This document shows, in pieces, positions 1,351 through 34,313 of a stretch of 34,313 nucleotides of DNA. The notes beneath the pieces were generated by a model. It searched no databases and was not told where the DNA came from. It saw only the letters and a program-made list of their open reading frames with translations. The stretch is from assembly GCA_032718475.1 (NCBI GenBank), contig JAUCBJ010003769.1, forward strand, positions 1 to 34,313, in the 5' to 3' direction. This stretch comes from Nemertoderma westbladi (lineage: Eukaryota; Animalia; Xenacoelomorpha). A program made the position numbers and the translations under genes. Within the stretch, counting starts at the first letter, position 1; the number at the start of each line of letters is the position of its first letter.

Positions 1351-4300
1351 GTATGTGGGGCGAGCCACGAAGTGAGTGAGCCTTAGCGTAGTGGTACCAT
1401 TAATCAACCTGTCGTTCTGTCGTTCTGTCGCGTTTTTTTTCAGTATTTTATTTTAAACGTTAATAACTCGGCCAATCCTTGATGAAATCTATCCAAACTT
1501 GGTACACATGTTGTTTGGCAAAAGTTTGAAAATTTTCCAAGTAGAATTTGCGTGGGGCCTTCGTGCAGCATCAGTGTAACTGTTATTGTAGTTATAATAT
1601 ATTTATTTATCCAAAATTAACATGCGTTAAATTATTATTACTGTAGGATAAATCAGCTGGTTATCTGACAAATTTTGCAAAACATAGGGGCTGTCTGCCA
1701 ATCTGCATGTACCATTTGTACCGGTACTGTCAGGCTGTACTCAATTCCTGAATCGAGAATTCTGCAATCAGTCAATACTGCAATACAGGTCAGCCGGTAC
1801 CATACACTGCAGACATGCCATATCATGTAATCTAAACATGGCCCCGGAAACCCTTGCGGTGATTATAGTTTAGGCCTAATTAGCCTAGTACCGGTAATAA
1901 TAATATAATAGTTTAGATAGTTCAGTAGTTACTGCTAATCATTCAGTCATTGGCACGGTACACCGTATTGCTGTACTGCCGTTGTAGTGCGCACCGTAGG
2001 TACCACCCATGCGTAGGCTGACTGTGCTGATTATGGTACTGTCAGACTGTGGTACCTAAGCTATATACTGTTAGGTATATTGCTGTATTGGGGTGGGGTT
2101 AGGAATAATCCATTTGTTTTAGCATTGAACTGTTGAATCCCCTTATTTATTATAAAACCATTGGAAATATTCACAAATGCCGCTCCATTACTGTCTGAAA
2201 CGCTCCCGACAGTCCGATGTATCTGGACCCGAGCAGCCGAGTTGCTTCAAGAGGTGATTAATGGGGGAATACTACGGAATTGCTTGTTTGTCAGTACGAT
2301 TCTATTTGGGTATTTACTACACTCAGACACTGGGAATACGGCGGTCGGTCAGATCGTAATGCGGGCCACTGCCAAGTTCATCATGCCTCACTCCGGTCAC
2401 CCACCTTGGAGTGCGGTGGGAAGAGTCCCACTTACTGACTTACGTCGACGACTGGACGAATCGACGAGGATTGCGATCTGGGTTTAGCGGCGGCCCGGAT
2501 CCTGGGATCGCCTGGGGGAAATGGTTGAACGTTGGGCAGACGTTATCGCACTGGATTACGTTCTCTGTGATGCGAAAGTGTGAAGCGAATTCGTTGTCGA
2601 ATTGGGTTGGAAGCTGCGGGAATTCTACTGTTCTACGGGAGTAAACTGCAGCGGTCCGGTGACTACGGACGGATACTACTGGGATAAGCAGGTATTTCGA
2701 TCGAGTTTCTCGTATTCTCGATGCTCGAGGCGGATAGAGAGTTGGTTGTGTTGGGCGGTGTTGTTCAATTCTATCAAACATATTAAATAATTGGTAAAAT
2801 AATAAAAACACACCAGATAAAGATACTGAGCTTATGGTAAAGAGATAGGCCGAACTTACAATTTCCAAATAGATTGTTCATATTATTATAATAAATATAT
2901 TTTTGGTATTTGATTTCAAGATAGGGGGGGGGGGGGGGGGGGGGAACTGGAAGCAATAAAAATTCATCCCTCTCCAGGGGAAATTGGACGCAAATAACAA
3001 CAGCTGATTACTCTCAAAAATAAAACTGTAACCTGTTCTATTGTGTTTACTTTATTGTTTTGGTTAAAATAACGTGCCATTGTAACCTGCTCCTTTCCCA
3101 AAATTTAGAAATTAATATTGAGGCGGGATATTAATTCGCCAAGATGGGATTTGCGTCCAGTCCCACCCCCCTCCTATCTCTTGATTTCACTAAAAAATAG
3201 AATACATTGCATTTTACTGTTATAATTACTGTATTGAATAAAATAATTAATTGATTGTTTATTAAACCGTGCTAAGCACGTTGAACTGGAGCTCTAACAA
3301 TTCCCCACTAGCAGCAGACAGGAACTGTAAAAGTCTCTGTAGAATTTCTAATTAAGCAATGCTCTTAGGTAACTACTACTAAATTTCAGATGAATCTGAT
3401 CGTTGGTTCTATAATTACAGCAATTTTTACGTTTCTGTTAATTCGCCCCCTAGCGGCAGACCGGGGAACTGTAGAAGTCTGTCTGTGTGTAGAATTTCTA
3501 AATTTTTTTAAAGACTACAAGTGTACCAAGTTTGGTTCCATTTCATCCATGATTGACCGACTTATTAGCGTTCAAACATTCCTGCCACGAATAAAAGCTG
3601 CAGGAACTCGAGCGATAATTAATTTATTTATTATTAAATACTGTTTCAATTAAATTCTTTACGAAAATCTAGTCATCTTCTTTTAAATATGGACCCTGCA
3701 TTCATGGAAAATATAATATTTGATAATTCATCACAGTCAGCCTACGCTAATTTCACAGCAAAGTCCTTGTCATGGCCTGTGTGTAGTAGGCCATGGTACC
3801 ACCCTACTACCGGTACCGGCTGACCGGTGGCAACTAGCACTTGCACAGCAACAGCCCTACCGGCGATACACAGGTTGGAATTTATGTAGAGTTTGCTCAA
3901 CAGTACAGATATAAAATAGTTATCTAAATTATCTATATTACTATTGACAAGTATTGAAATATATACCGTTATTCGTATTTGCAACATCTGACATTGGAGA
4001 GGTGAGAGAAGATGAATACCGACACTCAACAAAACCAACGCTTATCACAGGTCGGTATGGTTACCTCGAAACCGGCGCGACTGTCCACTCGAATACAACT
4101 TCAAAATACAAACGCCAACAATAAACTGAAAGCGAATCGAACGTCTTCAGAAGAATCTGTCATTTGGGACGAAGAAAAGGAAGCCAAAACCACGGGAATG
4201 GACCACAGCTAAGATTGAATGCTCCCATTGTCAGAGTTCCTGGACCGAAATTGAAACACCAATTGCCGATGGGCTTGATCTCTCAAACCAAAACTTCCTC

Positions 4301-12835: not shown

Positions 12836-12869
12836 TGCGGTTTGCCGCTTTAATAATGTTTTGCCGCTT

Positions 12870-13140
12870 TTCGTCAAAATTGCACCTCCAAAATCCCTAC
12901 CACCCATGTGACTTTCGTGAGATTATCCGTATCTTCAAGGCCGATGTCCTTGAGAGGCATCTTAAGAAGGCACGGGCTGTCCATCTTGCTTATTTTCTCC
13001 ATGAGATAGCCAAAACACAAGATTGTATACAAAATGGTCCTCACCACAAAAGCAATGTCATGCATAGCGGAGGCAGCTTTGCCCAAGTCTCAAGCTTTCT
13101 TGGGTGGACCAATATTATATAGTGTCTGGTTAGAGATGTG
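12870..13140 (-). mobile_element. RTE-clade LINE 3' fragment
   Basis: Nucleotide similarity to 23420-23685 (CCGTATCTTCAAGGCC, GGGCTGTCCA, AAAGCAATGTC..GCGGAGGC, ATAGTGTCTGGTT). Confidence 0.7.
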
Positions 13141-15588
13141 TATAGATAGATAGATAGATATATAGAGATTACATAAATATTCTGGAATTATAGATTTTTC
13201 AGTTTGAAAAATATTTGAATGCAATTTGATAGTACATGGTCAAATTTTTACTACCAGTCAACACCCCACCCAAATGAACTTTCAGCCATGTTCAAATGCC
13301 ATCCTTCATTTTGTAGCACTCGGATAAAGTTCTGCCTGATTTCGCCAAACAGTGCGACCAGCCAGCATGTTTCAGCTTCATGTGTGCAGACTAGTCCTTT
13401 GTACAAGATTGGGCTTCACCTGATTAGGGAGTTTGTCAAGCTTTGATTCTTTTTCAAAGGGGAAATTTATCTGGAAAAGTATCACACCTGACACTTCATG
13501 TTTTATTACCAGCAATTGGGATTGTTGTATCTCGTCGAGAGATAACCCTACATTTGTTATTTCAATTGTTATTTATATTTACAGTTATTGATGAAGCTTA
13601 TATTAAAATGACTGGCAATGTTTATTGGATTTATTTATTGCCCTCATCGATACCAAGAAGAACAATAATAATAATCTTTCAACGACAGCTGTGCATAAAA
13701 TAGTTTACTATCGATTTATGAATCAAAGGTGTTGAGTAGAAGATATACAAGTGGACCCCAACTGGTACATTTTTTTATATAATCGATCAATAAGCCCACT
13801 TTTATGCTTGGATAACAAGCCCATACCAAATACAAGGTTATATTTGTTATTATGTTACTATTGTTATTATTAAATTACATCACGCAACATATTTAAAGTG
13901 ATTAATAATCAGCCCATATCTACCATGGTAAATTATCACACCCAAAGAAATATGGCATACTTGCACCTAATTTGATCGAAAAAGTTTCCTTGCAGCGGTA
14001 TTACGCTACCATTAAGCGGTTATAAGTAAAAGATGAGTAATTCCTGCATGAGTATTAGAGCGATGCATTACATTGGGTTATAAATGCAGGAAATATATTG
14101 ACTTTCAGAGGTAGAAGAATAACAAAATTTCCTAATTAACTTGTTTTAGCACCTCTAAAGCGTAAACACCTCTAATTAATTTCCTAATATCAAAATCATC
14201 GTCGCATCTGTCGTGTATAACATGGCGGATATAGGGAAACAGATTTGTTCTAGAAAGTACTCGAACGCAAAGGAAAAATGTACAAGTTGATACAATAAGA
14301 TTTACTAAATAAGATTTTTTGAAAATTTTATAAAAAAATTTTTTGTCATATATTAGAAATTCCAGAATTGAAAATATTCTATTTTTTTCTATTGATTGTA
14401 ATCGAAAACGGTTTCGAAATTTTGAATCAGCGCATCAATATTGACCAGAAAACGTGTTTTCGGACAAAATTTTTTTTGCGCGTGATTTTTGGCCAAATAT
14501 AACAAACGCTGATATTTGGTGAAAAGTTGAGCAAGAATAAATGGTTTAATAAGTAATTGGACCAGTTTAGATAAAAATCTCTTTTGGACTAAAACATGTT
14601 AAAGTTTAAAAAATAAATAAGCATAGAATTTTAAGAAAATTAATTTTCCCCACAGTGGTTTTTTTAAGATTTCGTGATTTAGTACCAGTACGAGCCTGAA
14701 AGGGACTCGAAACGTGTCAGAAGCTGCCTACCATCGCCCAACACGACTGACACGGAGCGGACAGATTGGGTATCAAAAGTTGGTGGGGTGGTTAAAATCT
14801 TATAAAGTAAAGTCAGTAGTCCTATAAAGTAAAATACTTATCTGTCATTTGTACTGTAGGTTTATTAACTCTTATGAATATTTGGTGTTATTAGTAGTAG
14901 GGTCTTGGGCGGCTCTGCGACAGTTAGACCACACTGACACCCATTGGGTGTCATATGACACCCAATTATCACCCTATGGGTGTCATTGGGTGTCATTGGC
15001 GCCAGACTGTCTGGGTGACACCTCCCAATTAGGCTAATTAGACCCTAATTGACAGGTGTCATCAATTAATTAGTACAATTAAACCCTAACAGGTGTCATA
15101 TGACTCCTAATTAGGGTTTAATTGATTATCCTAATTAATCAGACTGATTAGCGCCCTGACACACAATGGGTCATCAGTGTTGTCTAACTGTCGCAGAGCC
15201 GGCTCAAGAGGGTGTCATAAGTGACACCGCAGCTCTTTTATTCATTAATACTTATTTATTTATATTTAATTTTAAATTAATTAATTGTACTTTATTTTAG
15301 ATTTACCAATAATTAGTTTTATATATTGGTTTCTATATGACCTCATTGACTTTCATCTCGTTATACTTAGCCATAGGGTATACAGCTCCCTTACTGGTAA
15401 CTAATTACTCTTATCTATATCAAGACAGCTTTATCGTTGACCTTTGACCTTTGACCCCCAATTAGCTTTAACCAAGCAACAGCTTATTAATAATAGTTGT
15501 ATCCAAGCGCCCCACCCCCCCACCCCGTGACAGCTCTGATTACTAATTACTCTTACCTATATCCAGCCGTCTGCAGTTCCATAGTCTG

Positions 15589-15980
15589 CCGCTAGAGGGC
15601 ATATGATCTGAAATTAACATCTTCTCTAACTTTGCTATTTTCATTCCGAATGGGTTTAAACTCGGTAGGCATCTACTACGGCATAGGCCATATCTTTTGC
15701 GGAGCCATAGAGTAGTATGAAGTTCCCCTGTCTACCGCTAGAGGGCGTGTTATTTAAAAATTAACATCTTCTCTAGCTTTGTTATTTACAATCCGCAAAA
15801 CTATGAAGTTATATTGCTTAAGGGTTCTAAGGGGCGAGCCATGAGGCAAGATGTTTGAGACTTATTTAGATATATTATTACTTAATTTTGACCCCCCAAA
15901 CGGCATCTACTACGGCATAGGCTATATCTTTTGCAGAGTCACAGAGTAGTATGAAGTTCCCCAGTCTGCCGCTAGAGGAC
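15589..15980 (+). promoter_or_regulatory. Three CTCF-like motifs (CCGCTAGAGG[G/A]C) in the left arm
   Basis: At 15589-15600, 15735-15746 and 15969-15980. Close to the CTCF core CCASYAGRKGGC. Confidence 0.4.
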
Positions 15981-16076
15981 GAAATGTCTCAAAGTGAAAA
16001 CCATACGGTAGCCATGAATTGGTTACTAGGCAATAATACTGCATTTTGCAACGTTAGGCCTATTGCTGACCGAACG

Positions 16077-16160
16077 AAAACTGCCCTGGTTCATGCAGGG
16101 GTCGAACCCATGACATACGAGAGATGTGAATTCTACGCAACCACTACACCAAGGTGGAAC
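16077..16160 (-). ncRNA. tRNA-like RNA polymerase III unit, left arm copy
   Basis: Mirror of 20149-20232 with A box, B box and T4 terminator. Confidence 0.45.
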
Positions 16161-16223
16161 AGTAACCTTCGAATTTGTTCGTTGACGTTCGAATTTGTAA
16201 GACTCTCATTTAAGACTTGACAC

Positions 16224-17337
16224 AGACTATGCCTCACCGAGGCATAGACTATGACTCACTGAGGCATAGACTATGCCTCATTGAGGCACTGAGGCATAGA
16301 CTATGCCTCACTGAGGCACTGAGGCATAGACTATGCCTCACTGAGGCATAGACTATGCCTCACTGAGGCATAGACTAGGTCTCACTGAGGCATAGACTAG
16401 GCCTCACTGAGGCACTGAGGCATATACTATGACTCACTGAGGCATAGACTATGACTCACTGAGGCATAGACTATGCCTCACTGAGGCATAGACTATGCCT
16501 CACTGAGGCATAGACTATGCCTCACTGGGGCACTGAGGCATAGACTATGCCTCACTGAGGCATAGACTATGACTCACTGAGGCATAGACTATGCCTCACT
16601 GAGGCATTGAGGCATAGACTATGACTCACTGAGGCATAGACTATGCCTCACTGAGGCATAGACTATGCCTTACTGAGGCACTGAGGCATAGACTAGGCCT
16701 CACTGAGGCATAGACTATGCCTCACTGAGGCATAGACTATACCTCACTGAGGCATAGACTATGCCTCACTGAGGCACTGAGGCATAGACTATGACTCACT
16801 GAGGCATAGACTATGCCTCACTGAGGCACTGAGGCATAGACTATGCCTCACTGAGGCATAGACTAGGCCTCACTGAGGCATAGACTATGCCTCACTGAGG
16901 CACTGAAGCATAGACTATGACTCACTGAGGCATAGACTATGCCTCACTGAGGCATAGACTATGCCTCACTGAGGCATAGACTATGCCTCACTGAGGCATA
17001 GACTATGACTCACTGAGGCATAGACTATGCCTCACTGAGGCATAGACTATGCCTCACTGGGGACTGAGGCATAGACTATGCCTCACTGAGGCACTGAGGC
17101 ATAGACTATGACTCACTGAGGCATAGACTATGCCTCACTGAGGCATAGACCATGCCTCACTGAGGCATTGAGGCATAGACTATGACTCACTGAGGCATAG
17201 ACTATGCCTTACTGAGGCACTGAGGCATAGACTAGGCCTCACTGAGGCATAGACTATGCCTCACTGAGGCACTGAGGCATAGAATATGACTCACTGAGGC
17301 ATAGACTATGCCTCATTGAGGCATAGACTATGCCTCA
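16224..17337 (+). repeat. Palindromic minisatellite, 22-bp unit CTATGCCTCA-C-TGAGGCATAG-A
   Basis: Directly visible. Variants include TGACTCA for TGCCTCA and an inserted 8-mer CTGAGGCA. Confidence 0.97.
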
Positions 17338-17759
17338 CCATGGATGGGCTTTACCACTGTACTCGCATCTGCTGTCTCATTGGCTGCTCGATGCCTCAGA
17401 TTAAGGGTCTAAGGTCTTCAAGCTGACCATTTGCTTAGTTTTCTAATTAGAAGGTCGTGAGTTCGAACCCTAGAAGAGCATTATTCTTTTTCCTAGCACT
17501 CGGCTGACTCTAGTGACCACTAGCTTTGACTCTCCCAGCTATAGTGATAGTATGCAACCTTGGGAGTTAATGTGAGTAAAGGCCAAGAGATTAGACTTCA
17601 GGTTGCCTCTATTGGTTCATTCTTCTTAACTTTATAAAATAACTCAACCCTTATTTAAAGTTTTAAAAATTATGACTTAGTCGACCAATTTTCCAAAGTA
17701 TATTATAAAAACATATAATTTCTTGAATAAATAGACCTAATAGTAATAAATATTGTGGG

Positions 17760-17885
17760 GTAAATACATTTATAATACTAATATAATTATTATGGATAAA
17801 TAGTCCTAATACTATTATAATTGTTATGGATAAATAGTCCTAATACTAATATAATTGTTTTGGATAAATAGCCCTAACACTATTA
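17760..17885. repeat. 34-bp AT-rich tandem repeat in the cargo gene 3' region
   Basis: TGGATAAATAG(T/C)CCTAA starts at 17793, 17827 and 17861. Homologous to about 32180-32300. Confidence 0.8.
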
Positions 17886-17910
17886 TGAAAGGAACTCAAA
17901 CAAACAAATG

Positions 17911-18961
17911 TCAATAGCGTCGTCCTGCGCGGGCATATACTGAACGAGAGTTTTTTATCATAGGTCTTCGAAAATTAGTAAAAGCTGGTTGATTTACTTT
18001 ACTTTCATCTTCCTCATTACCCAACTGTTTCTTAATTTTATTCAATTGTTCATTAATTTTCAGTAATTTACTTTTATTTCCCAGAACCTGTCTTAATATC
18101 TCTTCTCTATTTTCCTCATTTTCTTCCATTTGTTTAATAAATTTCCGCATTTGATTTTTGTTTCCTAATATTTGTCTCAATATCTCTTCTTTATTTTCAT
18201 CATTCTCTTCTAAATGTTTAATAAATTTCTGTAATTTAATTTTGCTTCCTAGGACTTGGGTCAATGTCGCCTCTTTATTTTCTTCATTTTCCTTCAAATG
18301 TTTAATAATTTTCCGCAATTGATTCTTATTTCCAAGTAATTGCCTCTTTATTTCCTCATTATCATCATTTTCATCCTCTTCTCCACTTTCCTGATCTTCA
18401 CTTTCTTCACCCTCTTTCTGACCTTCCTTTCTTATCCTCTTCCCCGCCTTCACTTTCTTCATCGTCTTCCTGTTCTTCACTTTCTTCATCCTCTTCCTGT
18501 TCTTCACTTTCTTCATTCTCTTCCTGACCTTCGCTATCTTCACCCTCTTCTTGACCTTCACTTTCTTCATCATCATCCTGATCTTCACTTTCTTCGTTCT
18601 CAACTTCACTCTCTTCAACTTCATCCTGACCCTCACTATTTTCATTCTCCATCTCATCATCCTCTTCTTCTCCATCTTTCTCACTCAAATTTTCCTCATT
18701 TTCTAGGGGTAACTGTTTTTGTATCCCTTTCAAAATATTCATAACTTTATGAAATTTACTTTCCATTGTCTGTTTTATATTTAATATATCACGCTCATCT
18801 CTCTTTTTCTTTTCATCTTCACTAAAAATATCTTCGGATTTTTTAAATTTTTTTGGTAATGGAGCCATTAGTTTTTCCTTTCCATGTGTTTCCATATGAC
18901 GAGATAAATTGTCTTGTCTCATTTCTTTATTACAAACCAAACAACTTTCATGTCTATGCAT
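17911..18961 (-). pseudogene. Cargo gene, frameshifted copy: C2H2-like finger, acidic repeats and four 28-aa helical repeats
   Basis: ORF 18407-18961 gives the N-terminus and the 3' part of ORF 17911-18684 gives the C-terminus of the protein seen intact at 31105-32154. Two 1-bp deletions near 18425-18435 relative to the acidic repeat unit. Confidence 0.85.
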
Positions 18962-19099
18962 TATATAGCAATGTCAATTGATAATATTGAATTTTAGCTA
19001 AATGATTTTACAAAATTTTAAATAAATTAAACTTTTATGAAAATAAATAAAACTTTTTAATATAAAACTTAGAGAATGACTGGGAATGCGTTGAACGGG

Positions 19100-19200
19100 G
19101 GTTATTATAGAGGGAGGCTAGAATGGATTATCCAATCAGAGTGCGAGGGTGAGTTAGGCAGCCAATCAGGACTCGAGGGAGGAAAGTTAGACAGCCAATG
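19100..19200 (-). promoter_or_regulatory. Putative Pol II promoter of the cargo gene: TATA-like box and three CCAAT boxes
   Basis: CCAAT at 19132, 19162 and 19195 (spacing 30 and 33 bp). TATAATA on the minus strand at 19103-19109, also kept in copy 2 at about 30958. Confidence 0.55.
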
Positions 19201-19412
19201 AGAGAGTAGATGCGAGTACAGTGGTAAAGCCCATCCATAGTGAGATAACGTCACACTAACTCTCAAGGATAGTTATACTCACCATTCAAATATCCCTCGC
19301 AAACCAGATTCCCCCCCAGCATCTAAAGTATTCCACTTCAATGCAAAATATATAGAGCTTTAGTTGGATTTGAACCTGTGCTTGTAAACTTTTTTGTGCT
19401 CGTATATTGAAG

Positions 19413-20085
19413 TGAGGCATAGACTATGCCTCACTGAGGCATAGTCTATGCCTCAGTGCCTCAGTGAGGCATAGTCTATGCCTCAATGAGTCATAGTCTA
19501 TGCCTCAGTGCCTCAGTGAGGCATAGTCTATGCCTCAGTGAGTCATAGTCTATGCCTCAGTGCCTCAGTGCGGCATAGTCTATGCCTCAGTGAGGCATAG
19601 TCTATGCCTCAGTGCCTCAGTGAGGCATAGTCTATGCCTCAGTGAGACATAGTCTATGCCTCAGTGAGGCATAGTCTATGCCTCAGTGAGTCATATTCTA
19701 TGCCTCAGTGCCTCAGTGAATCATAGTCTATGCCTCAGTGAGGCATAGCCTATGCCTCAGTGAGGCATAGTCTATGCCTCAGTGCCTCAGTGAGGCATAG
19801 TCTACGCCTCAATGAGGCATAGTCTATCCCTCAGTGAGTCATAGTCTATGCCTCAGTGCCTCAGTGAGGCATAGTCTATGCCTCAGTGCCTCAGTGAGGC
19901 ATAATCTATGCCTCAGTGAGTCATAGTCTATGCCTAAGTGCCTCAGTGAGTCATAGTCTATGCCTCAGCTGAGGCATAGTCTATGCCTCATGCCTCAGTG
20001 AGGCATAGTCTATGCCTCAGTGCCTCAGTGAGTCATAGTCTATGCCTCAGTGAGTCATAGTCTATGCCTCAGTGAGGCATAGTCT
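19413..20085 (-). repeat. Palindromic minisatellite, right arm (inverted relative to the left array)
   Basis: Unit TGAGGCATAG-T-CTATGCCTCA-G. The spacer bases T/G are the complements of A/C in the left array. Confidence 0.97.
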
Positions 20086-21649
20086 GTGTCAAGTCTTAAA
20101 TGAGAGTCTTACAAATTCGAACGTCAACGAACAAATTCGAAGGTTACTGTTCCACCTTGGTGTAGTGGTTGCGTAGAATTCACATCTCTCGTATGTCATG
20201 GGTTCGACCCCTGCATGAACCAGGGCAGTTTTCGTTCGGTCAGCAATAGGCCTAACGTTGCAAAATGCAGTATTATTGCCTAGTAACCAATTCATGGCTA
20301 CCGTATGGTTTTCACTTTGAGACATTTCGTCCTCTAGCGGCAGACTGGGGAACTTCATACTACTCTGTGACTCTGCAAAAGATATAGCCTATGCCGTAGT
20401 AGATGCCGTTTGGGGGGTCAAAATTAAGTAATAATATATCTAAATAAGTCTCAAACATCTTGCCTCATGGCTCGCCCCTTAGAACTCTTAAGCAATATAA
20501 CTTCATAGTTTTGCGGATTGTAAATAACAAAGCTAGAGAAGATGTTAATTTTCAAATAATACACCCTCTAGCGGCAGACAGGGGAACTTCAGACTACTCT
20601 ATGTCTCCGCAAAATATATAGCCTATGCCGTAGTAGATGCCGATTGGGGGGTCAAATTAAGTAATAATATATCTAAATAAGCCTCAAACATCTTGCCTCA
20701 TGGCTCGCCCCTTAGAACCCTTAAGCAATATAACTTCATAGTTTTGCGGATTGTAAATAACAAAGCTAGAGAAGATGTTAATTTTTAAATAATACGCCCT
20801 CTAGCGGTAGACAGGGGAACTTCAGCCTACTCTATGCCTCCGCAAAAGATATGGCCTATGCCGTAGTAGATGCCTGCCGAGTTTAAACCCATTCGGAATG
20901 AAAATAGCAAAGTTAGAGAAGATGTTAATTTCAGATCATATGCCCTCTAGCGGCAGACTATGGAACTGCAGACGGCTGGATATAGGTAAGAGTAATTAGT
21001 AATCAGAGCTGTCACGGGGTGGGGGGGTGGGGCGCTTGGATACAACTATTATTAATAAGCTGTTGCTTGGTTAAAGCTAATTGGGGGTCAAAGGTCAAAG
21101 GTCAACGATAAAGCTGTCTTGATATAGATAAGAGTAATTAGTTACCAGTAAGGGAGCTGTATACCCTATGGCTAAGTATAACGAGATGAAAGTCAATGAG
21201 GTCATATAGAAACCAATATATAAAACTAATTATTGGTAAATCTAAAATAAAGTACAATTAATTAATTTAAAATTAAATATAAATAAATAAGTATTAATGA
21301 ATAAAAGAGCTGCGGTGTCACTTATGACACCCTCTTGAGCCGGCTCTGCGACAGTTAGACAACACTGATGACCCATTGTGTGTCAGGGCGCTAATCAGTC
21401 TGATTAATTAGGATAATCAATTAAACCCTAATTAGGAGTCATATGACACCTGTTAGGGTTTAATTGTACTAATTAATTGATGACACCTGTCAATTAGGGT
21501 CTAATTAGCCTAATTGGGAGGTGTCACCCAGACAGTCTGGCGCCAATGACACCCAATGACACCCATAGGGCGATAATTGGGTGTCATATGACACCCAATG
21601 GGTGTCAGTTGGGTCTAACTGTCGCAGAGCCGCCCAAGACCCTACTACT
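20086..21649 (-). repeat. Right terminal inverted repeat, non-satellite part, with an extra approximately 233-bp tandem unit
   Basis: Units start CCTCTAGCGG at 20331, 20565 and 20798. Otherwise the reverse complement of 14893-16223. Confidence 0.95.
20149..20232 (+). ncRNA. tRNA-like RNA polymerase III unit, right arm copy
   Basis: A box TGGTGTAGTGG at 20158-20168, B box GGTTCGACCCC at 20201-20211, TTTT at 20229-20232. The cloverleaf is only partial. Confidence 0.45.
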
Positions 21650-22319
21650 GTTATTATTGTTGTGGGGAAGCCCATATATTTAGAATCAAGTCTCAGAATT
21701 AGGTTACTTCGGGTTATTTCTATGAGTGTTCGGAATTATAAATTTGATATTCAACCAACATTTATATTCTTTTTGCGACCTGCATGACATATCAACTTCC
21801 CCCAACAACACGCAATAATACCAGTGACTAGTTTTAGGGGATTTGGTGACATTCCTCAGGGCTTAAATCGGCCTCTATCCATGAGGATCCAGGATTGAAG
21901 GCAACAAATTGTGAGACCATGGTTGAAGAAATGAAGTTTATTATTATCAAGAGTTTGATAGTCACCGTTATTTAATTGTTGCTAAGTAGGTAACAATAAT
22001 CAATTGATGAAAATAGGTAAAAGGCAGTTTATAAGTCAGGTGAAGGCTAGTTGGGGATGGCTTGAAGATGTAAAGCTGGTTTTAGACCAAACAAGGTTAT
22101 AACATCGCAGCTCATTTCGTGATCATAGTCCGTTGCTGCACGTCCACAAAAGTGACAGCTTGTAATGTAATTATTGGTTACAATTGTGTTAATATGTAAG
22201 AGAGTGGGGGAGAAGTGTTGGAATGGAGAGATCATGGGGAGACCAGTACGGTAGGACGTTGTTTGAATAAGAAATTGGAAATTGAGAACTGTTTATATGA
22301 AATCCAAGTTGTTGATATT

Positions 22320-23340: not shown

Positions 23341-25434
23341 GTACTACTACTAGGATCGGCATGCTGCATTGCAGCTGCATTTTTTAAGAATGCTGTGCCG
23401 GCTTATCGACAAAATTACACCGCCACAACTCCCTATCACCCATGACATTTGCTAGATCATCCGCATCTTCAAGGCCAGTGTACTTTAAGATGCGTCTCAA
23501 GAAAGTCATGGGCTGTCCACCATGCTTATTCACTCCATGAGGCTGCCAAAGTACATGATTATGCACTGGCTGGTCCTCACGGCGAAAGCAATGTCCTGCA
23601 AAGCGGAGGCGATTTTGTTCTAGTGTCAAGCTTGGGGGAACCAATGAGACACCTCCAATGTTATATAGTGTCTGGTTGGAGATGTGTGCATTGTACTTGA
23701 CACAATGTACCCGGCGTAGCATTCTTGTGAATGTGCCATCCAGAGATTTGGTGTCCTCAGCAGTTAGAGCCCAGCATGGACTCCCGTAGAGGAGTACTGG
23801 AACTACTGCTGCTCTAAATAATCGGACCTTAAGTTTCCGATTAATTCTAGGTGACTTCCAAATCCTGGAAAGCCTATTCAAGGCTGCCCATGCCTTTCCC
23901 TTACGTATTCGAAGGTCCTCACCTGACTTCCGGGTCCATGATCCCAGGTAACAGAAGTCATCCACATGCTCAAGCATACCATCCTTTGAGATTATGGTCA
24001 TACGATCAGAGACTTGCTGAGGACTTTCAAAGTTAACTGTCAAAATGTTGGTCTTTCTGGAGTTAATAAAAAGACCAACACTAGAAGCAGCATGTTCTAA
24101 TGAGCTGAGGAGCCGTTGGGCTCCATCTAGTGATTCTGAGAGTACTCCTAAGTCATCAGCAAAGTCTAGATCAGTTAGGTACTTGGCAGGATTTCCTCGA
24201 CTTCTGGAGCCACTAGGTTATCATCACCCCATCATCATTATGATGATCTAAGGACATGCGTAGAACATAGTCAACAACAATTATGAACAAGAATGGTGTA
24301 AGTGTGTCTCCCTGGAGGACGCCCCATAACACTTCAAATGGTTCTGTGTCACTGTCAACAGTAGACACAATAATGTTGTCGAACCATCGTATACTGATCT
24401 GATTGCTGCAATAATTTCATCAGGAATCCCATATAATGAAAGTATGCTGAACATACGTGAGCGAGAGACTGAATCAAAGGCTTTGAAGAAGTCAACAAAG
24501 ATAACAGCCAGATGCCTGTCTTTCTTTTTTTGATAATTCTTCAATTATCCTTCTAAGTGCCAAAATGGGCTCCATGGTCCCACGACCTTTACGGAACCCA
24601 TTCTGATTTCCACGGAGCAGTCTCTCAATGGGATCCCTGAGGCGATTTAATAGAATTCTATTGTATAGCTTTGCAGCAATCGAGATCAATGAGATTCCCC
24701 GAAAAGAACCATAGAGTGTTAGGTTGCCCTTCTTGGGAACTGGCACCAACTTATTTGTTTTCATTTCTTGTGGGACTCTTGTTGTTCGGTACATGTCTAC
24801 TATGATGGGATAGATGAGCTTTAAACACTCAGGTATTTTAAAGACCTCAGGGGGAACACCATCTACTCCACTGGCACGATTGGTCTTAATGCTCTTTGCA
24901 GCAGCCTTCACTTCTGCAAAGGAGATATCGCCAATGGGAATATCTGGGAGTACAGACTCAGACACTTTTACTTCTATAAAGTTATCAGGCAATACCCTGT
25001 CATTATTGAGGAGCTTTTCAAAGTGGGCTTTCCAACCATTGAGGCGATCGGCTGGTGATTCAGCCTTAACCTTGGTGGTTGGTTGGCTTTTTCGACCAGC
25101 AAGCAAGTTGATCGATCTTCATGCCTGGGATGATTGCCTGCTGTCGTCAGCATCATTGATGGCATCAACCTGTTGGTTTATTAGCTCCTGTAAATTAACA
25201 GAACTGCCTGTTCAGGGACCTAGATGCAGCCTTAACTGCATTCTTGGCCCCTGTAGTCTGTTTGAGTCGGGTCTCTTTCTACGCCTTGTAGAGGTCATTT
25301 CGGCACTTCTGAATTTTGTTGTCAGTCCAGGGGTCCGTTTCCTGTTTCGAGGGTATACAGGACTGTTTCTGCAGCTGCTAACTTAACTGCCTCTGTGAAG
25401 GCAGTATAGTCACAGTGATCTGCCGCCTCGGCAG
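23341..25434 (-). mobile_element. 5'-truncated RTE-clade LINE with frameshifted reverse transcriptase
   Basis: NQNGFRKGRGT, FVDFFKAFDSV, QGDTL, DLDFADDL, FCYLGS, VLLYGS and RLRFAGH motifs. Short (TAG)n 3' tail at about 23343-23352. Confidence 0.92.
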
Positions 25435-25554
25435 ACAACCAGGCGCTAAACATTACTTCGTCTTCGCTTAAAACTATTGAAGGACTTTTAAAAGTTTTTT
25501 AAAATAAATTATACATTATGCATACATATATAATACAATAAATATTATTATTGT
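25435..25554 (+). repeat. 120-bp direct repeat, right copy
   Basis: Matches 23221-23340. Confidence 0.9.
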
Positions 25555-25702: not shown

Positions 25703-26428
25703 CTAAAATATTCCATTGAATGTTACCAGCAACAAAACCATAGGAAATATCGGTGTAGCAATGGTTGAACTGCTTGGAATCTTCTCATCTGTTGTCGTTT
25801 CTTCAACCGCACTGACGGTAGTTGCTGTAGTTAGATTCACCCCCCAAACTGGAGTATGACACTCACCAGGACAACATATCATTTGGCACGATGTGTACTT
25901 GACTGTGGCTCCGTGAAGAAAGGAATCTCTAACAGCAATCATAACCCGAACGATGTCATCTTGAGCGTTTTCCACATCCTTGAAACTCTGGTGATCGATT
26001 TTAAACCCATTTTCATACTGTTGTATAAATGTTGGACACCTGTCTTCACCCAGATCCAAGCAAATAGCGGTGAAGCCGCCAGCACCATCGCCTGAGCACC
26101 CTTCCACTGTTCCCTCGATCATGAACTCATCGCCAGTGTCATCGTGTACAGCGATATTTCGATAGAACAAATTGGCACATTCGGTACAATTGTACACGAT
26201 GCGTCTGATATCATGATGGCGTTCTGTTGTGAAACCATGTTCATCTAACCATTGTTGATTGCTATTAGCTAGATTCGCGAATTTTTCATCCATCGTGTGT
26301 TGTAGTCCCTCAGTAGTTGCAGTAACGCTCGCGGTTCCTTCGGAATAGCACGTAACATCCCCATAACAAACCATTATATATGGTATAACGTAAAGAATGT
26401 ATAGTGATGTGATCTGATAAAACACCAT
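25703..26428 (-). CDS. Intronless Cys-rich surface protein, probably GPI-anchored, possibly a divergent Ly6/three-finger protein
   Basis: 241-aa ORF with a hydrophobic N-terminus ending VCYG/DVTCY, about 9 Cys ending in CQMICCPGECH, a Thr-rich stalk, then SSS and a hydrophobic C-terminal tail. Confidence 0.7.
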   Translation of the reverse strand: MVFYQITSLYILYVIPYIMVCYGDVTCYSEGTASVTATTEGLQHTMDEKFANLANSNQQWLDEHGFTTERHHDIRRIVYNCTECANLFYRNIAVHDDTGDEFMIEGTVEGCSGDGAGGFTAICLDLGEDRCPTFIQQYENGFKIDHQSFKDVENAQDDIVRVMIAVRDSFLHGATVKYTSCQMICCPGECHTPVWGVNLTTATTVSAVEETTTDEKIPSSSTIATPIFPMVLLLVTFNGIF

Positions 26429-26869: not shown

Positions 26870-27345
26870 TTAAGAATGGTTTGCCGGCTTATCGGAAAAA
26901 TGCCATAAACTGCCAAAACTGCCATAACAATGCCCTATCACCCATGTGCCGCCAGTGCACTAATGCACAAGATCGTTCAAGGAAAGTTCCTCACGTCGAA
27001 AGCTATGTCCTGCAAAGCGGAGGCGGCTCTGTTCAAGCACCAAGGTTGGGGGACCAATGATACACCTTGATGTTGTATAGGGTCTGCCTGAAGATATGTG
27101 CATTATTCTTGACACAATAAACCCGGATTACATTTCTAGTATATGTGCAAACCGGAGAATTTGTTTTCCTCAGAAGTTTGAGCCCAGCACTGGTTCCCAT
27201 ATACGAGTACTGGCTCGACAGCTGCTCTAAATGATCGAACTTTATGATTCCGATGTTTTCTATGTGACTTCCAAATCCTGAACAGCCCATACATCCTTCC
27301 GGATGAATGATCCAAGTCACCACAACACAACAAGCTCAAGTATGT
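26870..27345 (-). mobile_element. Degenerate RTE-clade LINE 3' fragment
   Basis: RIWKS...FRAAVEPVLVYG and NAHIFRQTLYNI match the RTE ORF at 23384-24043. Confidence 0.8.
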
Positions 27346-29340: not shown

Positions 29341-29610
29341 TTTATTATCCATCACATCTAAATGCAATTCACTCGTGTCGGATGTATATTTATGTATATT
29401 TATGTCATTTATATATTATATATATTACATTTCACTGCCATCAACGTTCTAAACCTCCTGCATCAGGAGCTGGTGAAACGTGACGTCGATGCCAATCAAC
29501 ACAAAGCGGCTGCAGATGCCAGCCTCGATAAACTAACTCAGATACAACAGCATGACAATGCGGCATGCAAGCTCACTGAGGCCAACGGCAGACTGATGGG
29601 CACACTCCAA

Positions 29611-30520
29611 GTCACTTTCCACCACTCTTTGCTCTGGTGTCTTGAACAATTCTATACCAATCCTGATGTTGTCCCCATTCTGTATGTAATGGTAAATAAA
29701 TTGTCTTGATAGTGTCTTGGAGGTAGTTTCACTGCCCATGCTTTTACTATATACTTGTCTACGGCTGCCTGTACTTCTTTATGTTGTTTGTCATTCCTCT
29801 CCAATTTATATTTCATTCTCTCGAACCGTTTTAACACCATTACCAAATTATTTCTCAATCCTTGTTGCTCATCCTTCCATAACATTCGTATTTTGAAATG
29901 TCCATCTTTAAATTGTATTGATTGTTCATATAAATTCTTTCTTGTATATCTTCTTGTGAGTCTCCCAATGTCAAATCGAAGAGTCCTTCACAGTCCTGGT
30001 TAAAAATACCATCCAGATCTTATTTAATTAATTCCCTCATCACTGATGCCTTCTTCTTTACTCTCTTCCATCTGATCTATTTCCATCTGTATTCCTACAT
30101 TGTCTCCATCAACTGGGCCATATATCACCCACTCAAATGATCTCAGTTTTTCCCATGGGCTGTTTCTTATTCCTCATCACTCGTCTCTGGTCTCGAAACA
30201 TTCGGGATTGTCGACCCCTATTCATTAGACTAACCATGGGTACGTCCACTTTTTCATGGCTAAAATCAATATTGCAGAGATGATCATAATGTGCAGTTTA
30301 TTTTGCACTGGGTTGCGACTTACTTATTGTTAGGTGGTCCATTGTTGCCATTTCTGTTGCAACTATACTGAAATTTCCTCTCCCCTCCACCACTGGTACA
30401 ATAGTTTATGGGCCTATCCCAAGGCGTCCTTTAATTCTCTATTAAAGGATGCCAGTAGTAATGGTTTACCCTACTTCTGCGACAGTTTGGTCCTACTTCA
30501 CACCTTGGGTGTTAAGTAGG
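29611..30520 (-). mobile_element. Degenerate BEL/Pao LTR-retrotransposon pol fragment (protease to RT region)
   Basis: Manual reading gives HYDHLCNIDF, IGVDNP, WVIYGPV, SQED and IQFKDGHFKIRMLWKDEQQGLRNN...KRFERMKYKLERND, the motif order characteristic of BEL/Pao pol. Confidence 0.7.
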
Positions 30521-31104
30521 TCATTAATTAATTAACCAATTAATTAATTGGTCGATTAAACAATTAATTAATTGTTTAATCAATCGATTTGTATCAAATA
30601 ATGTTGCCAAAGGCAATTTAATTTGACACAAATCAATCAGATAGGGACGCGCGATGAATAAATTGTACTACAGCAAACGAAATATCGAGGCCCAAAACAT
30701 AAATATACCCTTTCACGAAAATAAAGTGGGCCCAGTTTGGCCCCGAGTCATCCCTCAATAATCTGCGGTTGTTGGGCTCTTATTAACCGTAGCATAACTA
30801 ACCCAAACATCAACGCGTGAATGGGGCCTGCCACAGAGTTTAAATTATTCAAACCTATAGCTTCGTTATTACATCAATTCGTCCGAGAAATTATAATAAA
30901 CATCTGCTCTTGCAATAGATTGCATTCTTCTTTCACAACTCCATTCTAACCTCCCTCTATAATAGCCCCTAGTCACCGCATTCCCATTCATTCTCTAATT
31001 TTTATTTTTAAAAGTTTTATTTATTTTCATAAAAGTTTTATTTATTTAAAATTTTGTAAAATCATTCAGCGAAAATTCATAATATCAATTGACATTGCTA
31101 TATA

Positions 31105-32154
31105 ATGCATAGAGATGAAAGATGTTTGGTTTGTAATAAAGAAATGAGACAAGATAATCTATCTCGTCATATGGAAAGACATAGAAAGGATAAACTAATG
31201 GATCCATTACCAAAGAAATTTAAAAAATCCGAAGATGTTTTTAGTGAAGATGAAAAGAAAAAGAGAGTTGAGCGTGATATTTTAAAGATAAAACAGACAA
31301 TGGAAAATAAATTTCATAAAGTTATGAATATTTTGAAAGGGATACAAAAACAGTTACCCCTAGAAAATGATGAGAATTTGAGTGAGGAAGATGAAGAAGA
31401 AGAGGACGAAGAGATGGAGAATGAAAATAGTGAGGGTCAAGATGAAGTTGAAGAGAGTGAAGTTGGGAACGAAGAAAGTGAAGATCAGAAAGATGACGAA
31501 GAAAGTGAAGGTCAGGAAGAGGGTGAAGATAGCGAAGGTCAGGAAGAGAATGAAGAAAGTGAAGAACAGGAAGAGGATGAAGAAAGTGAAGAACAGGAAG
31601 AGGATGAAGAAAGTGAAGAACAGGAAGAGGATGAAGAAAGTGAAGAACAGGAAGAGGATGAAGAAAGCGAAGGTCAGAAAGAGGATGAAGAAAGTGAAGG
31701 TCATGAAGAGGACGAAGAAAGTGAAGAACAGGAAGACGACGAAGAAAGTGAAGGTCAGGAAAGTGAAGAAGATGATGAAAATGATAATAATAAGGAAATA
31801 TTGAGACAATTACTTGGAAATAAGAATATATTGCGGAAAATTATTAAACATTTAGAAGAGAATGGTGAAAATAAAGAAGAGATATTGAGACAAATATTAG
31901 GAAACAAAAATCAAATGCGGAAATTTATTAAACAAATGGAAGAAAATGAGGAAAATAGAGAAGAGATATTAAGACAGGTTCTGGGAAATAAAAGTAAATT
32001 ACTGAAAATTAATGAACAATTGAATAAAATTAAGAAACTGTTGGTTAATGAGGAAGATGAAATTAAAGAAAATCAACCAGCATTTACTTATTTTCGAAGA
32101 CCTATGACAACAAACTCTCGTACAGTATTTGCCCGCGCAGGAGGACACTATTGA
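31105..32154 (+). CDS. 349-aa protein: C-x2-C-x11-H-x3-H finger, basic NLS-like PKKFKK, coiled coil, (EEDEESEEQ)n acidic tract and three 28-aa helical repeats
   Basis: Intact ATG-to-stop ORF. Conserved with 17911-18961, with in-frame differences in repeat number. Confidence 0.8.
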   Translation: MHRDERCLVCNKEMRQDNLSRHMERHRKDKLMDPLPKKFKKSEDVFSEDEKKKRVERDILKIKQTMENKFHKVMNILKGIQKQLPLENDENLSEEDEEEEDEEMENENSEGQDEVEESEVGNEESEDQKDDEESEGQEEGEDSEGQEENEESEEQEEDEESEEQEEDEESEEQEEDEESEEQEEDEESEGQKEDEESEGHEEDEESEEQEDDEESEGQESEEDDENDNNKEILRQLLGNKNILRKIIKHLEENGENKEEILRQILGNKNQMRKFIKQMEENEENREEILRQVLGNKSKLLKINEQLNKIKKLLVNEEDEIKENQPAFTYFRRPMTTNSRTVFARAGGHY

Positions 32155-32342
32155 CATTTGTTTGTTTGAGTTCCTTTCATAATAGTATTAAAACTATTTA
32201 TCCATAACAATTATATTAGTATTAGGACTATTTATCCATAACATTTATATTAGTATTAGGATTATTTATCCTTAATTATTATATTAGTATTATAAATGTA
32301 TTTGCCAACAATATTTATTACTATTAGGTCTATTTATTCAAG

Positions 32343-32490
32343 TTTACGGGGATCTGACCTACCGGATCGGTATTGATCTCCCCCCCGCTTGGTGTTGGGC
32401 CCTTTAGAGTGGTGCAATTTGTACTTTGTGCTATAAGGTGTTTTATATCTACTATATTTGGCTAATATATTTTCTTATTATAAAAAAAAA
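32343..32490 (+). mobile_element. 148-bp poly(A)-tailed retro-insertion with a 12-bp TSD
   Basis: TATTTATTCAAG at 32331-32342 and 32491-32502, with an A9 tail. The homologous site in copy 1 (about 17722-17733) is empty. Confidence 0.85.
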
Positions 32491-32723
32491 TATTTATTCA
32501 AGAAATTATATGTTTTTTATAATATATTTTGGAAAATTAGTCGACTAAGTCATAATTTTTAAAACTTTAAATAAGGGTGGAGTTATTTTATAAAGTTAAG
32601 AAGAGTGAATCAATGGAGGCAACCTGAAGTCTCATATCTTGCCCTTTACTCATAAGACCGCACGTTAACTCCCAAGGTTGCATACTATCACTATAGCTGG
32701 GAGAGTCAAAGCTAGTGTACAGG

Positions 32724-34313
32724 AGTGAGGGAAGTGAGGCAGTGAGGAAGTGAGGGAAGTGAGGGAATGAGGGAGGCAGTGAGGGAAGTGAGGCAGTGAG
32801 GCATAGTGAGGCATAGTGAGGCAGTGAGGCATAGTGAGGCAGTGAGGCATAGTGAGGGAAGTGAGGGAAGTGAGGGAAGTGAGGCATAGTGAGGCAGTGA
32901 GGCATAGTGAGGCAGTGAGGCATAGTGAGGCATAGTGAGGCATAGTGAGGCATAGCGAGGCATAGCGAGGCATAGTGAGGCATAGTGAGGCAGTGAGGCA
33001 TAGTGAGGCATAGTGAGGCATAGTGAGGCATAGCGAGGCATAGTGAGGCATAGTGAGGCAGTGAGGCATAGTGAGGCATAGTGAGGCATAGTGAGGCATA
33101 GCGAGGCATAGCGAGGCATAGTGAGGCATAGTGAGGCAGTGAGGCAGTGAGGCAGTGAGGCATAGTGAGGCATAGTGAGGCATAGTGAGGCATAGTGAGG
33201 CATAGTGAGGCATAGCGAGGCATAGTGAGGCATAGTGAGGCATAGTGAGGCAGTGAGGCAGTGAGGCATAGTGAGGCATAGTGAGGCAGTGAGGCAGTGA
33301 GGCATAGTGAGGCATAGTGAGGCAAGTGAGGCAGTGAGGCAGTGAGGCATAGTGAGGCATAGTGAGGCATAGTGAGGCATAGTGAGGCAGTGAGGCAGTG
33401 AGGCATAGCGAGGCATAGTGAGGCATAGTGAGGCATAGTGAGGCAGTGAGGCATAGTGAGGCATAGCGAGGCATATTGAGGCATAGTGAGGCATAGTGAG
33501 GCATAGTGAGGCATAGTGAGGCATAGTGAGGCATAGTGAGGCATAGTGAGGCATAGTGAGGCATAGTGAGGCATAGTGAGGCATAGTGAGGCATAGTGAG
33601 GCATAGTGAGGCATAGTGAGGCATAGTGAGGCATAGTGAGGCATAGTGAGGCATAGTGAGGCATAGTGAGGCATAGTGAGGCAGTGAGGCAGTGAGGCAT
33701 AGTGAGGCATAGTGAGGCATAGTGAGGCATAGTGAGGCATAGTGAGGCATAGTGAGGCATAGTGAGGCATAGTGAGGCAGTGAGGCATAGTGAGGCATAG
33801 TGAGGCATAGTGAGGCATAGTGAGGCATAGTGAGGCATAGTGAGGCATAGTGAGGCATAGTGAGGCATAGTGAGGCATAGTGAGGCATAGTGAGGCATAG
33901 TGAGGCATAGTGAGGCATAGTGAGGCATAGTGAGGCATAGTGAGGCAAGTGAGGCAAGTGAGGCATAGTGAGGCATAGTGAGGCATAGTGAGGCATAGTG
34001 AGGCATAGTGAGGCATAGTGAGGCATAGTGAGGCATAGTGAGGCATAGTGAGGCATAGTGAGGCATAGTGAGGCATAGTGAGGCATAGTGAGGCATAGTG
34101 AGGCATAGTGAGGCATAGTGAGGCATAGCTGAGGCTATGCCTCACTATGCCTCACTATGCCTCACTATGCCTCACTGCCTCACTGCCTCACTATGCCTCA
34201 CTATGCCTCACTGCCTCACTGCCTCACTATGCCTCACTATGCCTCACTATGCCTCACTATGCCTCACTATGCCTCACTATGCCTCACTATGCCTCACTAT
34301 GCCTCACTGCCTC
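32724..34313. repeat. Head-to-tail (TGAGGCATAG)n satellite that inverts at 34129-34134 and runs off the window
   Basis: Directly visible. Variants TGAGGCAG, TGAGGGAAG and CGAGGCATAG. (CTATGCCTCA)n from 34135. Confidence 0.97.

Follow-up and report, generated by a model that had tools for sequence, protein, structure and literature searches.

The simian virus 40 (SV40) large T antigen joins an origin-binding domain to a superfamily 3 (SF3) helicase, and inverted pairs of the pentanucleotide GAGGC lie near its own promoter. LANA of Kaposi's sarcoma-associated herpesvirus (KSHV) and EBNA1 of Epstein-Barr virus (EBV) are element-encoded proteins with an acidic repeat tract and repeated cognate sites adjacent, and the Drosophila GAGA factor is a host factor with a BTB domain and a 12-residue Cys-His spacing in its finger. 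Mavericks (Polintons) have (AGT)2//(ACT)2 or (AG)3//(CT)3 ends and a 6-bp target duplication (PMC8097293), their terminal repeats are quoted at 100-1500 bp (10.1101/2023.08.22.554363), and some adintovirus/Polinton genomes carry 'Ziftr' zinc-finger genes, described as CTCF-like regulators (10.1101/2024.03.25.586562). Here we compare with these systems a zinc-finger gene that occurs twice, each time inside a Maverick-type element and beside satellite arrays, in contig JAUCBJ010003769.1 of Nemertoderma westbladi (assembly GCA_032718475.1). The window is the whole stretch of 34,313 bp that was analysed, read on the forward strand. Judged from its sequence, the encoded protein (the window protein) probably binds the about 300 TGAG[G/T]CA sites in the arrays of its own element through R(-1), D(2), N(3) and R(6) of one recognition helix. 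The gene copies and the parts of the protein are as follows.

31105..32154, + strand: gene copy 2, an open frame of 349 amino acids (aa) with finger, long helix, acidic tract and 28-aa repeats, and no helicase
17911..18961, - strand: gene copy 1, with the same helix as copy 2, frameshifted near 18430 in the acidic region; its first open reading frame (ORF), 18407-18961, has 184 aa
31123..31182, + strand: short-spaced C2H2 finger of copy 2, ligands C7, C10, H22 and H26
31147-31167, + strand: recognition helix of copy 2, R15(-1) Q16 D17(2) N18(3) L19 S20 R21(6)
31246..31353, + strand: predicted long helix, residues 48-83, which aligns with the post-finger helix of helicase-bearing relatives
31375..31788, + strand: acidic tract, 65% Asp+Glu, made of 27-bp repeats
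31798..32037, + strand: about three 28-aa repeats with an 84-bp period, for which a search found no relative
30940..31104, + strand: 5' non-coding region that is common to the two gene copies and likely the promoter (blastn 30940-32342 against 19127-17722, 89.5%)
32179..32337, + strand: 34-bp AT-rich repeats 3' of gene copy 2, present also in copy 1 at 17713-17886

Both copies have the finger pattern C-x2-C-x4-RQDNLSR-H-x3-H in which 11 residues separate the second Cys from the first His, and the statement of a first-pass annotation that both keep the helix R-Q-D-N-L-S-R-H beside arrays holds for the ORF at 31105-32154 and for the copy that starts at 18961 on the reverse strand. The structure model of the finger places strands at residues 4-6 and 13-15 and a helix at 16-31 (predicted local distance difference test 79-90 over residues 1-30). 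This corresponds to a predicted beta-beta-alpha fold with CCHH ligands, which are invariant or nearly so, and in the model R15 takes position -1 directly ahead of the helix, a register that would suit base reading by positions -1, 2, 3 and 6. The window finger lacks the 12-residue Cys-His spacing of classical Zif268/Sp1-type C2H2 fingers and scores below the Pfam cut-offs. A homodimer prediction for residues 1-92 scored 0.02, which is evidence neither way; run X5, guessed to be RNA, covered little of the gene. Note that about 150 bp at 32343-32490 follow gene copy 2 and are missing from copy 1. The arrays that the finger is predicted to read lie in the following positions.

32724..34135, + strand: head-to-tail array of about 147 10-mers, the predicted binding sites
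34135..34313, - strand: the same 10-mer array on the opposite strand, reaching the window end
16224-17338: 22-mer array in the left arm of element 1, inverted pairs of the 10-mer array's word
19411-20085: 22-mer array in the right arm of element 1, inverted pairs of the same word, starting about 450 bp upstream of gene copy 1

All common array variants keep GAG[G/T], as had been stated before and as their counts bear out: TGAGGCATAG occurs 102 times, TGAGGCAG 23, TGAGTCA 19, CGAGGCATAG seven and TGAGGGAAG six times. The accompanying caution that a 4-bp match may arise by chance was justified, for GAG[G/T] alone is weak and expected in 11-15% of random 10-mer units, the full TGAG[GT][CT]A in 0.5%. 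Sites with a middle A number 158 and 147 in the two window elements, against 10 and 3 with any other middle base. Among rare unit variants, four substitution types fall on the three GAG positions and 11 on the other seven; the GAG positions are thus no poorer in substitution types and the variant argument alone adds little. We therefore rejected the conservation of array variants as proof of reading, because rare variants strike GAG about as often by type. The strand flip at 34135 was tested as the start of a right arm (best unit-order match 16/18, P = 0.15) and is either a real palindrome or right arm, or an assembly fold-back. In X1, the loose ends of five contigs at 31079 start with the array word, which hints at some copies in which an array abuts the promoter. 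A 20-mer array search of viral contigs gave one two-unit chance match only.

Homologues of the complete window protein were found neither at E 1e-3 in a search restricted to lengths of 191-611 nor among viral contigs. A further protein search gave nine weak matches that were confined to or centred on the finger, and Atlas returned zinc-finger leads only, all below 0.9. By use of a degenerate DNA pattern for the 11-spaced finger, in which helix positions 1, 3 and 5 were left free, 34 distinct metagenome loci (36 rows) and 10 viral loci were recovered, and none in prokaryote genomes. With a family profile built from 17 of these metagenome proteins, 1037 proteins were retrieved, 120 of which were listed. 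Profile comparison places the window protein in this short-spaced finger family (hhalign 95.5%; finger profile E 8e-8). The 11-residue spacing, held against the finger in the first-pass annotation, is the norm of the family: it was present in 113 of the 120 listed relatives, a spacing of 12 in none, and the pattern was absent in seven. Together with the model, which puts R15 right before the helix, this removes the objection, and the spacing as a lesion was rejected. The helix of the 113 listed relatives has R(-1) in 104, D(2) in 90 and R(6) in 109 cases, counts that are biased upward by a seed pattern in which positions -1, 2 and 6 were fixed. Position 3 varies between N (47), H (39), T (14), V (6), K (4), I (2) and Y (1).

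Behind the finger, most aligned relatives have a domain with Walker motifs, and this C-terminal domain is predicted to fold as an SF3 helicase of the type found in Rep proteins of circular Rep-encoding single-stranded (CRESS) DNA viruses (Foldseek E 5e-11). The SF3 helicase domain is absent from the window protein. With the CRESS-DNA Rep and iteron systems of geminiviruses and circoviruses the relatives share the modelled helicase fold and short oriented repeats, of diversifying sequence, immediately ahead of their own gene (cf. PMC12548392). Unlike Rep, they have a C2H2 finger in place of the HUH nuclease and iteron-reading domain; neither the HUH nicking domain nor its motifs were seen in alignment or model, the N-terminus consisting of the finger plus helices. 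At most the protein would work like an initiator, and it is no member of the CRESS Rep proteins. The helicase alignment found nothing among viral contigs. The label 'cargo', which the first-pass annotation had given to the gene, was wrong: its family occurs on mobile-element-like contigs, and a captured host gene was rejected since the family accompanies viral helicases.

If the finger reads these sites, finger and site should change together among relatives. This was analysed in 27 metagenome loci; seven of the 34 had been dropped beforehand, namely L005 (the same as L002), L009 and L027 (unlike the helicase family) and L011, L013, L023 and L031 (one GC-rich group). A motif-blind scan for 7-mers repeated at least four times in 150 bp detected clusters in nine of the 27 loci, and seven of these nine, including all five of mixed orientation, had a TG-N-G[GT] cluster. 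When sites of the form G-N-G[GT][CT]A[CT] were counted within 400 nt upstream of the gene and at least three sites with one middle base were taken as a cluster, six loci had such a cluster compared to 0.27 expected from dinucleotide resampling. L012 and L036 represent one lineage, which leaves five independent loci with the following pairs of position 3 and middle base: N and A in L008 and L012, H and G in L017 and L035, V and T in L010. For the middle base, Table 1 of PMC1920264 gives N-A, H-G, V-T and T-C, with exceptions. The code is matched in all five independent loci (permutation P = 1/30), and in six of six if the window is included (P = 1/60). The most direct comparison is that of L008 (N) and L017 (H), which are sister genes in the tree (95/91) and whose upstream DNA aligns: five aligned sites have A in L008 and G in L017. 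Position 3 switches inside most clades of the tree, and the window heptamer is identical to that at L008 and L019. The earlier proposal that the finger reads GAG[G/T] in its own arrays is strengthened by the middle base that tracks position 3 in the independent upstream clusters, and weakened by the 21 of 27 loci that have no cluster; covariation among homologues, which the first-pass annotation had proposed as a check, was found for upstream clusters of the same site class, and two clusters in other positions mismatch.

Several observations weigh against this reading of the finger. The loci had already been seen when the motif and the limit of 400 nt were fixed, and the resampling takes no account of local duplication. 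Some contigs of the 21 clusterless loci are too short, and about a dozen have at least 340 nt upstream. A helix of the same type beside arrays lacking GAG, or beside no array, had been named as contrary evidence in the first-pass annotation and was encountered in part, given these clusterless loci and L018 and L020 (RSDNLKRH), which lie near arrays lacking GAG. The two mismatches are the H-type L019/L022, with six GAG sites 65 bp after the stop codon, and the V-type L003, with GAG sites 700 bp upstream; if such off-position lineages are included, the code is matched in 6/8 cases (P = 0.036), or in 5/7 without the window (P = 0.057). Off-position clusters may belong to neighbouring genes past the contig ends. 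At loci with T-type fingers the predicted GCG cluster was found in none of four, and selected zinc fingers sometimes break the code (PMC1920264). Eight viral-contig loci with a true finger, on virophage-like or Polinton-like virus (PLV)-like contigs, had no upstream clusters, and gene copy 2 of the window itself has no site upstream. Finally, a site of 7-8 bp exceeds the reach of one finger, so that basic flanks or a partner would have to contribute.

With these points in mind, finger and sites could also be an inherited pair that is now unused: an ancestral finger-helicase gene had GAG sites, both were passed on to the derivative, slippage and unequal exchange multiplied the sites, and the protein is inactive on them or not made. 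The frameshift of copy 1, the missing helicase and GAG positions that are as variable by type as the other unit positions fit this view, as does a helix conservation within the family of just P = 0.07 (host-family variants have 0 replacement and 2 silent changes in helix codons against 12 and 3 outside). Copy 2, on the other hand, retains its 349-aa frame across a repeat-rich tract, residues 7-24 are without replacement between the copies as compared to 11 replacements elsewhere in 92 codons, and the most amplified internal variant of the array, G to T at unit position 5 with 17 copies, occurs in the family's sites as well; we therefore consider an unused pair unlikely. Somewhat less probable still is that the sites are read by another factor, be it a transcription factor of the host or a further finger encoded by the autonomous element, and that the agreement with the code is partly a small-sample coincidence. 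TGAGTCA is the AP-1 word, more than one finger is present at several loci, and beside its one H-type gene L022 carries two homologous modules, of which one has six GAG and the other six GGG sites. Geminivirus iterons may also be contested by host factors (PMC12548392). A host factor is, however, not expected to switch its middle base along with residue 3 in sister genes, and the fit of the code to all five upstream clusters speaks in the same sense.

The short-spaced finger could, moreover, be a protein-binding module of the ubiquitin-binding zinc finger (UBZ) type that does not read DNA. Foldseek with the small finger gave weak rows led by UBZ domains and the GAGA factor; the top rows are the UBZ domains of WRNIP1 and RAD18, yet only at E 0.5-1.0, and the 11-residue spacing is typical of UBZ4. 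UBZ4 has CCHC ligands and a conserved Asp after the His, whereas the finger here has CCHH ligands, and its relatives conserve nothing acidic behind the first His, where they mostly have Lys, Gln or Arg. Since the closest PDB sequences to the family profile are Sp1 finger 3, Zif268 and ADR1, and since the variation is concentrated at the base-contacting position 3, we regard a UBZ-type function as highly improbable. The GAGA factor (1YUI) is a weak fold match to the window finger (E 1.1). It too has a single C2H2 finger, and it binds a GAG-containing satellite (PMC2132683; 10.1101/2022.11.29.518380), as is predicted for the window protein; it differs in that it is not encoded by the repeat-bearing element.

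The DNA that surrounds the two gene copies has the following anatomy.

14893..21649: element 1, complete, 6757 bp, with AGTAGT...ACTACT ends and GTTATT flanks at 14887-14892 and 21650-21655
14893..17342, + strand: left terminal inverted repeat of element 1, 98-99% complementary to the right arm outside the array
19411..21649, - strand: right terminal inverted repeat of element 1, 98-99% complementary to the left arm outside the array
30454..30513, + strand: left terminus of element 2, which starts with AGTAGT and aligns with the element 1 end over 60 columns
30448-30453: predicted target duplication of element 2, GATGCC, with its partner beyond the window

Both gene copies are in high-copy, non-autonomous elements of Polinton/Maverick type. 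The end motif (AGT)2//(ACT)2 is present at both ends of element 1 and at the left end of element 2, and element 1 has the 6-bp target duplication, GTTATT on both flanks, as well as long terminal inverted repeats. Its arms of 2.2-2.4 kb exceed the published range of 100-1500 bp and contain the satellite arrays. No ORF for PolB, integrase, ATPase or capsid was found in either element, which are non-autonomous for this reason; at 6.8 kb element 1 has the finger gene, gene copy 1 in mid-element position, as its sole gene. A Foldback/Galileo-type element was rejected because the ends and the 6-bp duplication fit Mavericks. The element family is clearly repeated: the summed contig depth, which is not a copy number, climbs at 30454 from about 12 to thousands in two of four runs, and a third run goes up from 0 to about 70.

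Several smaller repeats accompany this anatomy. Each arm has a second, inverted copy of the terminal 40-bp motif some 270 bp further in, set around AT-rich palindromes (14893-15200 and 21340-21649), and similar palindromes are present in element 2 at 30527-30589. A 53-bp inverted pair of element 1 (17334-17386 and 19192-19244) brackets the gene, with one member immediately inside each array. Repeats of 233 bp in both arms (15569-15998 and 20311-20973) carry CCGCTAGAGGGC, a CTCF-like word; a related copy stands alone at about 3432-3476.

We now return to the window protein as a reader of its own arrays. Since the anatomy of the family is a finger, an SF3 helicase and oriented sites upstream of its own gene, the best reading of the window gene is that of a helicase-less derivative of an iteron-binding initiator. 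In full-length relatives the finger would bring the helicase to 4-10 oriented sites immediately in front of the own gene, as Rep and T antigen act on iterons, for origin opening and self-regulation. The window word happens to include GAGGC, the pentanucleotide of SV40; T antigen has an unrelated DNA-binding fold, and a relationship in sequence is not expected. In the derivative the helicase would have been replaced by the acidic tract and the helical repeats, finger and long helix being retained, and the sites would have expanded to satellites within the terminal repeats or next to them. Presumably the protein coats the arrays, and avidity would compensate for one weak finger. Most likely the coated arrays would then mark the element ends for replication or integration by an autonomous helper Maverick and the protein would regulate its own promoter, and these are the least supported steps. 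The analogy to tethering by LANA or EBNA1, which the first-pass annotation had drawn, gained no support and is looser than that to Rep and iterons: the window elements are integrated, and no episome, tethering motif or shared fold was shown.

A more general proposal can be made tentatively, and we consider it possible rather than probable. Animal Polintons may hold an initiator-iteron system, so far undescribed, whose single short-spaced finger stands in place of the HUH domain of a CRESS-type Rep helicase, and in which helix position 3 against one base (G-N-G) sets lineage identity, like plasmid incompatibility groups. The window elements would be parasites of this system that kept the finger only and blew up the iterons into satellites that capture or titrate helper machinery, so that a self-encoded DNA-binding protein would have begotten a host satellite. 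In the literature searched, which did not extend to subscription journals, Repbase or the supplementary maps of papers, we found no sequence-specific cis-trans pair and no Polinton finger with binding sites. The description of adintovirus 'Ziftr' genes names no target (10.1101/2024.03.25.586562); adintovirus genome maps in supplements may show this gene family under another name. If the window protein does read its own arrays, this would be the first such Polinton/Maverick cis-trans pair in the literature searched, with a family of more than 1000 members, a predicted site and a one-residue/one-base code that the natural variants allow to be tested directly. It would inform on self-DNA recognition by elements, on helper borrowing by non-autonomous copies and on satellite growth from own binding sites, and the zinc-finger code could be followed, as in a natural experiment, in a finger that stands alone and has a short spacing.

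Within the finger family some further arrangements were observed. P0225, P0227, P0228, P0232, P0233, L015 and L033 have two short-spaced fingers in tandem with unlike residues at position 3, for example H in the first and N in the second; such pairs would read composite sites. Repeated 140-bp modules with six sites each, in the order -,+,-,-,+,+, follow the finger-helicase gene on its 3' side in L022 (90-380) and L019 (30-200), and from one module to the next all six sites change their middle base, from GAG to GGG in L022 and from GAG to two GTG sites in L019. L002 has four TGAGGCA within its own coding repeat. In L030, L034 and L020 finger proteins or their neighbours are fused to HIRAN, which replaces the helicase or stands beside it (Pfam E ~1e-5 to 1e-7). 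On the virophage/PLV-like viral contigs (L002, L037, L039, L041-L045) the finger is often found at the C-terminus of a nuclease, presumably GIY-YIG-like, and site clusters are absent. Pfam detected no Polinton family on the metagenome contigs of 1-5 kb; neighbouring ORFs with an NGSGW motif and the C-terminus of L035 in our estimation resemble Polinton genes.

By its reverse-transcriptase remnants and a laminin-G exon the window is recognisable as eukaryotic and probably animal DNA; a tRNA gene was not found in it. A single-exon ORF of 241 aa on the reverse strand (25703-26428) has signal-like and C-terminal hydrophobic ends and many Cys, and no Pfam match. Several decayed copies of non-LTR (long terminal repeat) retrotransposons are located at 12849-13141, 23384-25554 and 26988-27293 (RVT_1 and DUF6451 matches), and degraded fragments at 29500-30400, just outside element 2, presumably resemble the pol region of BEL/Pao retrotransposons.

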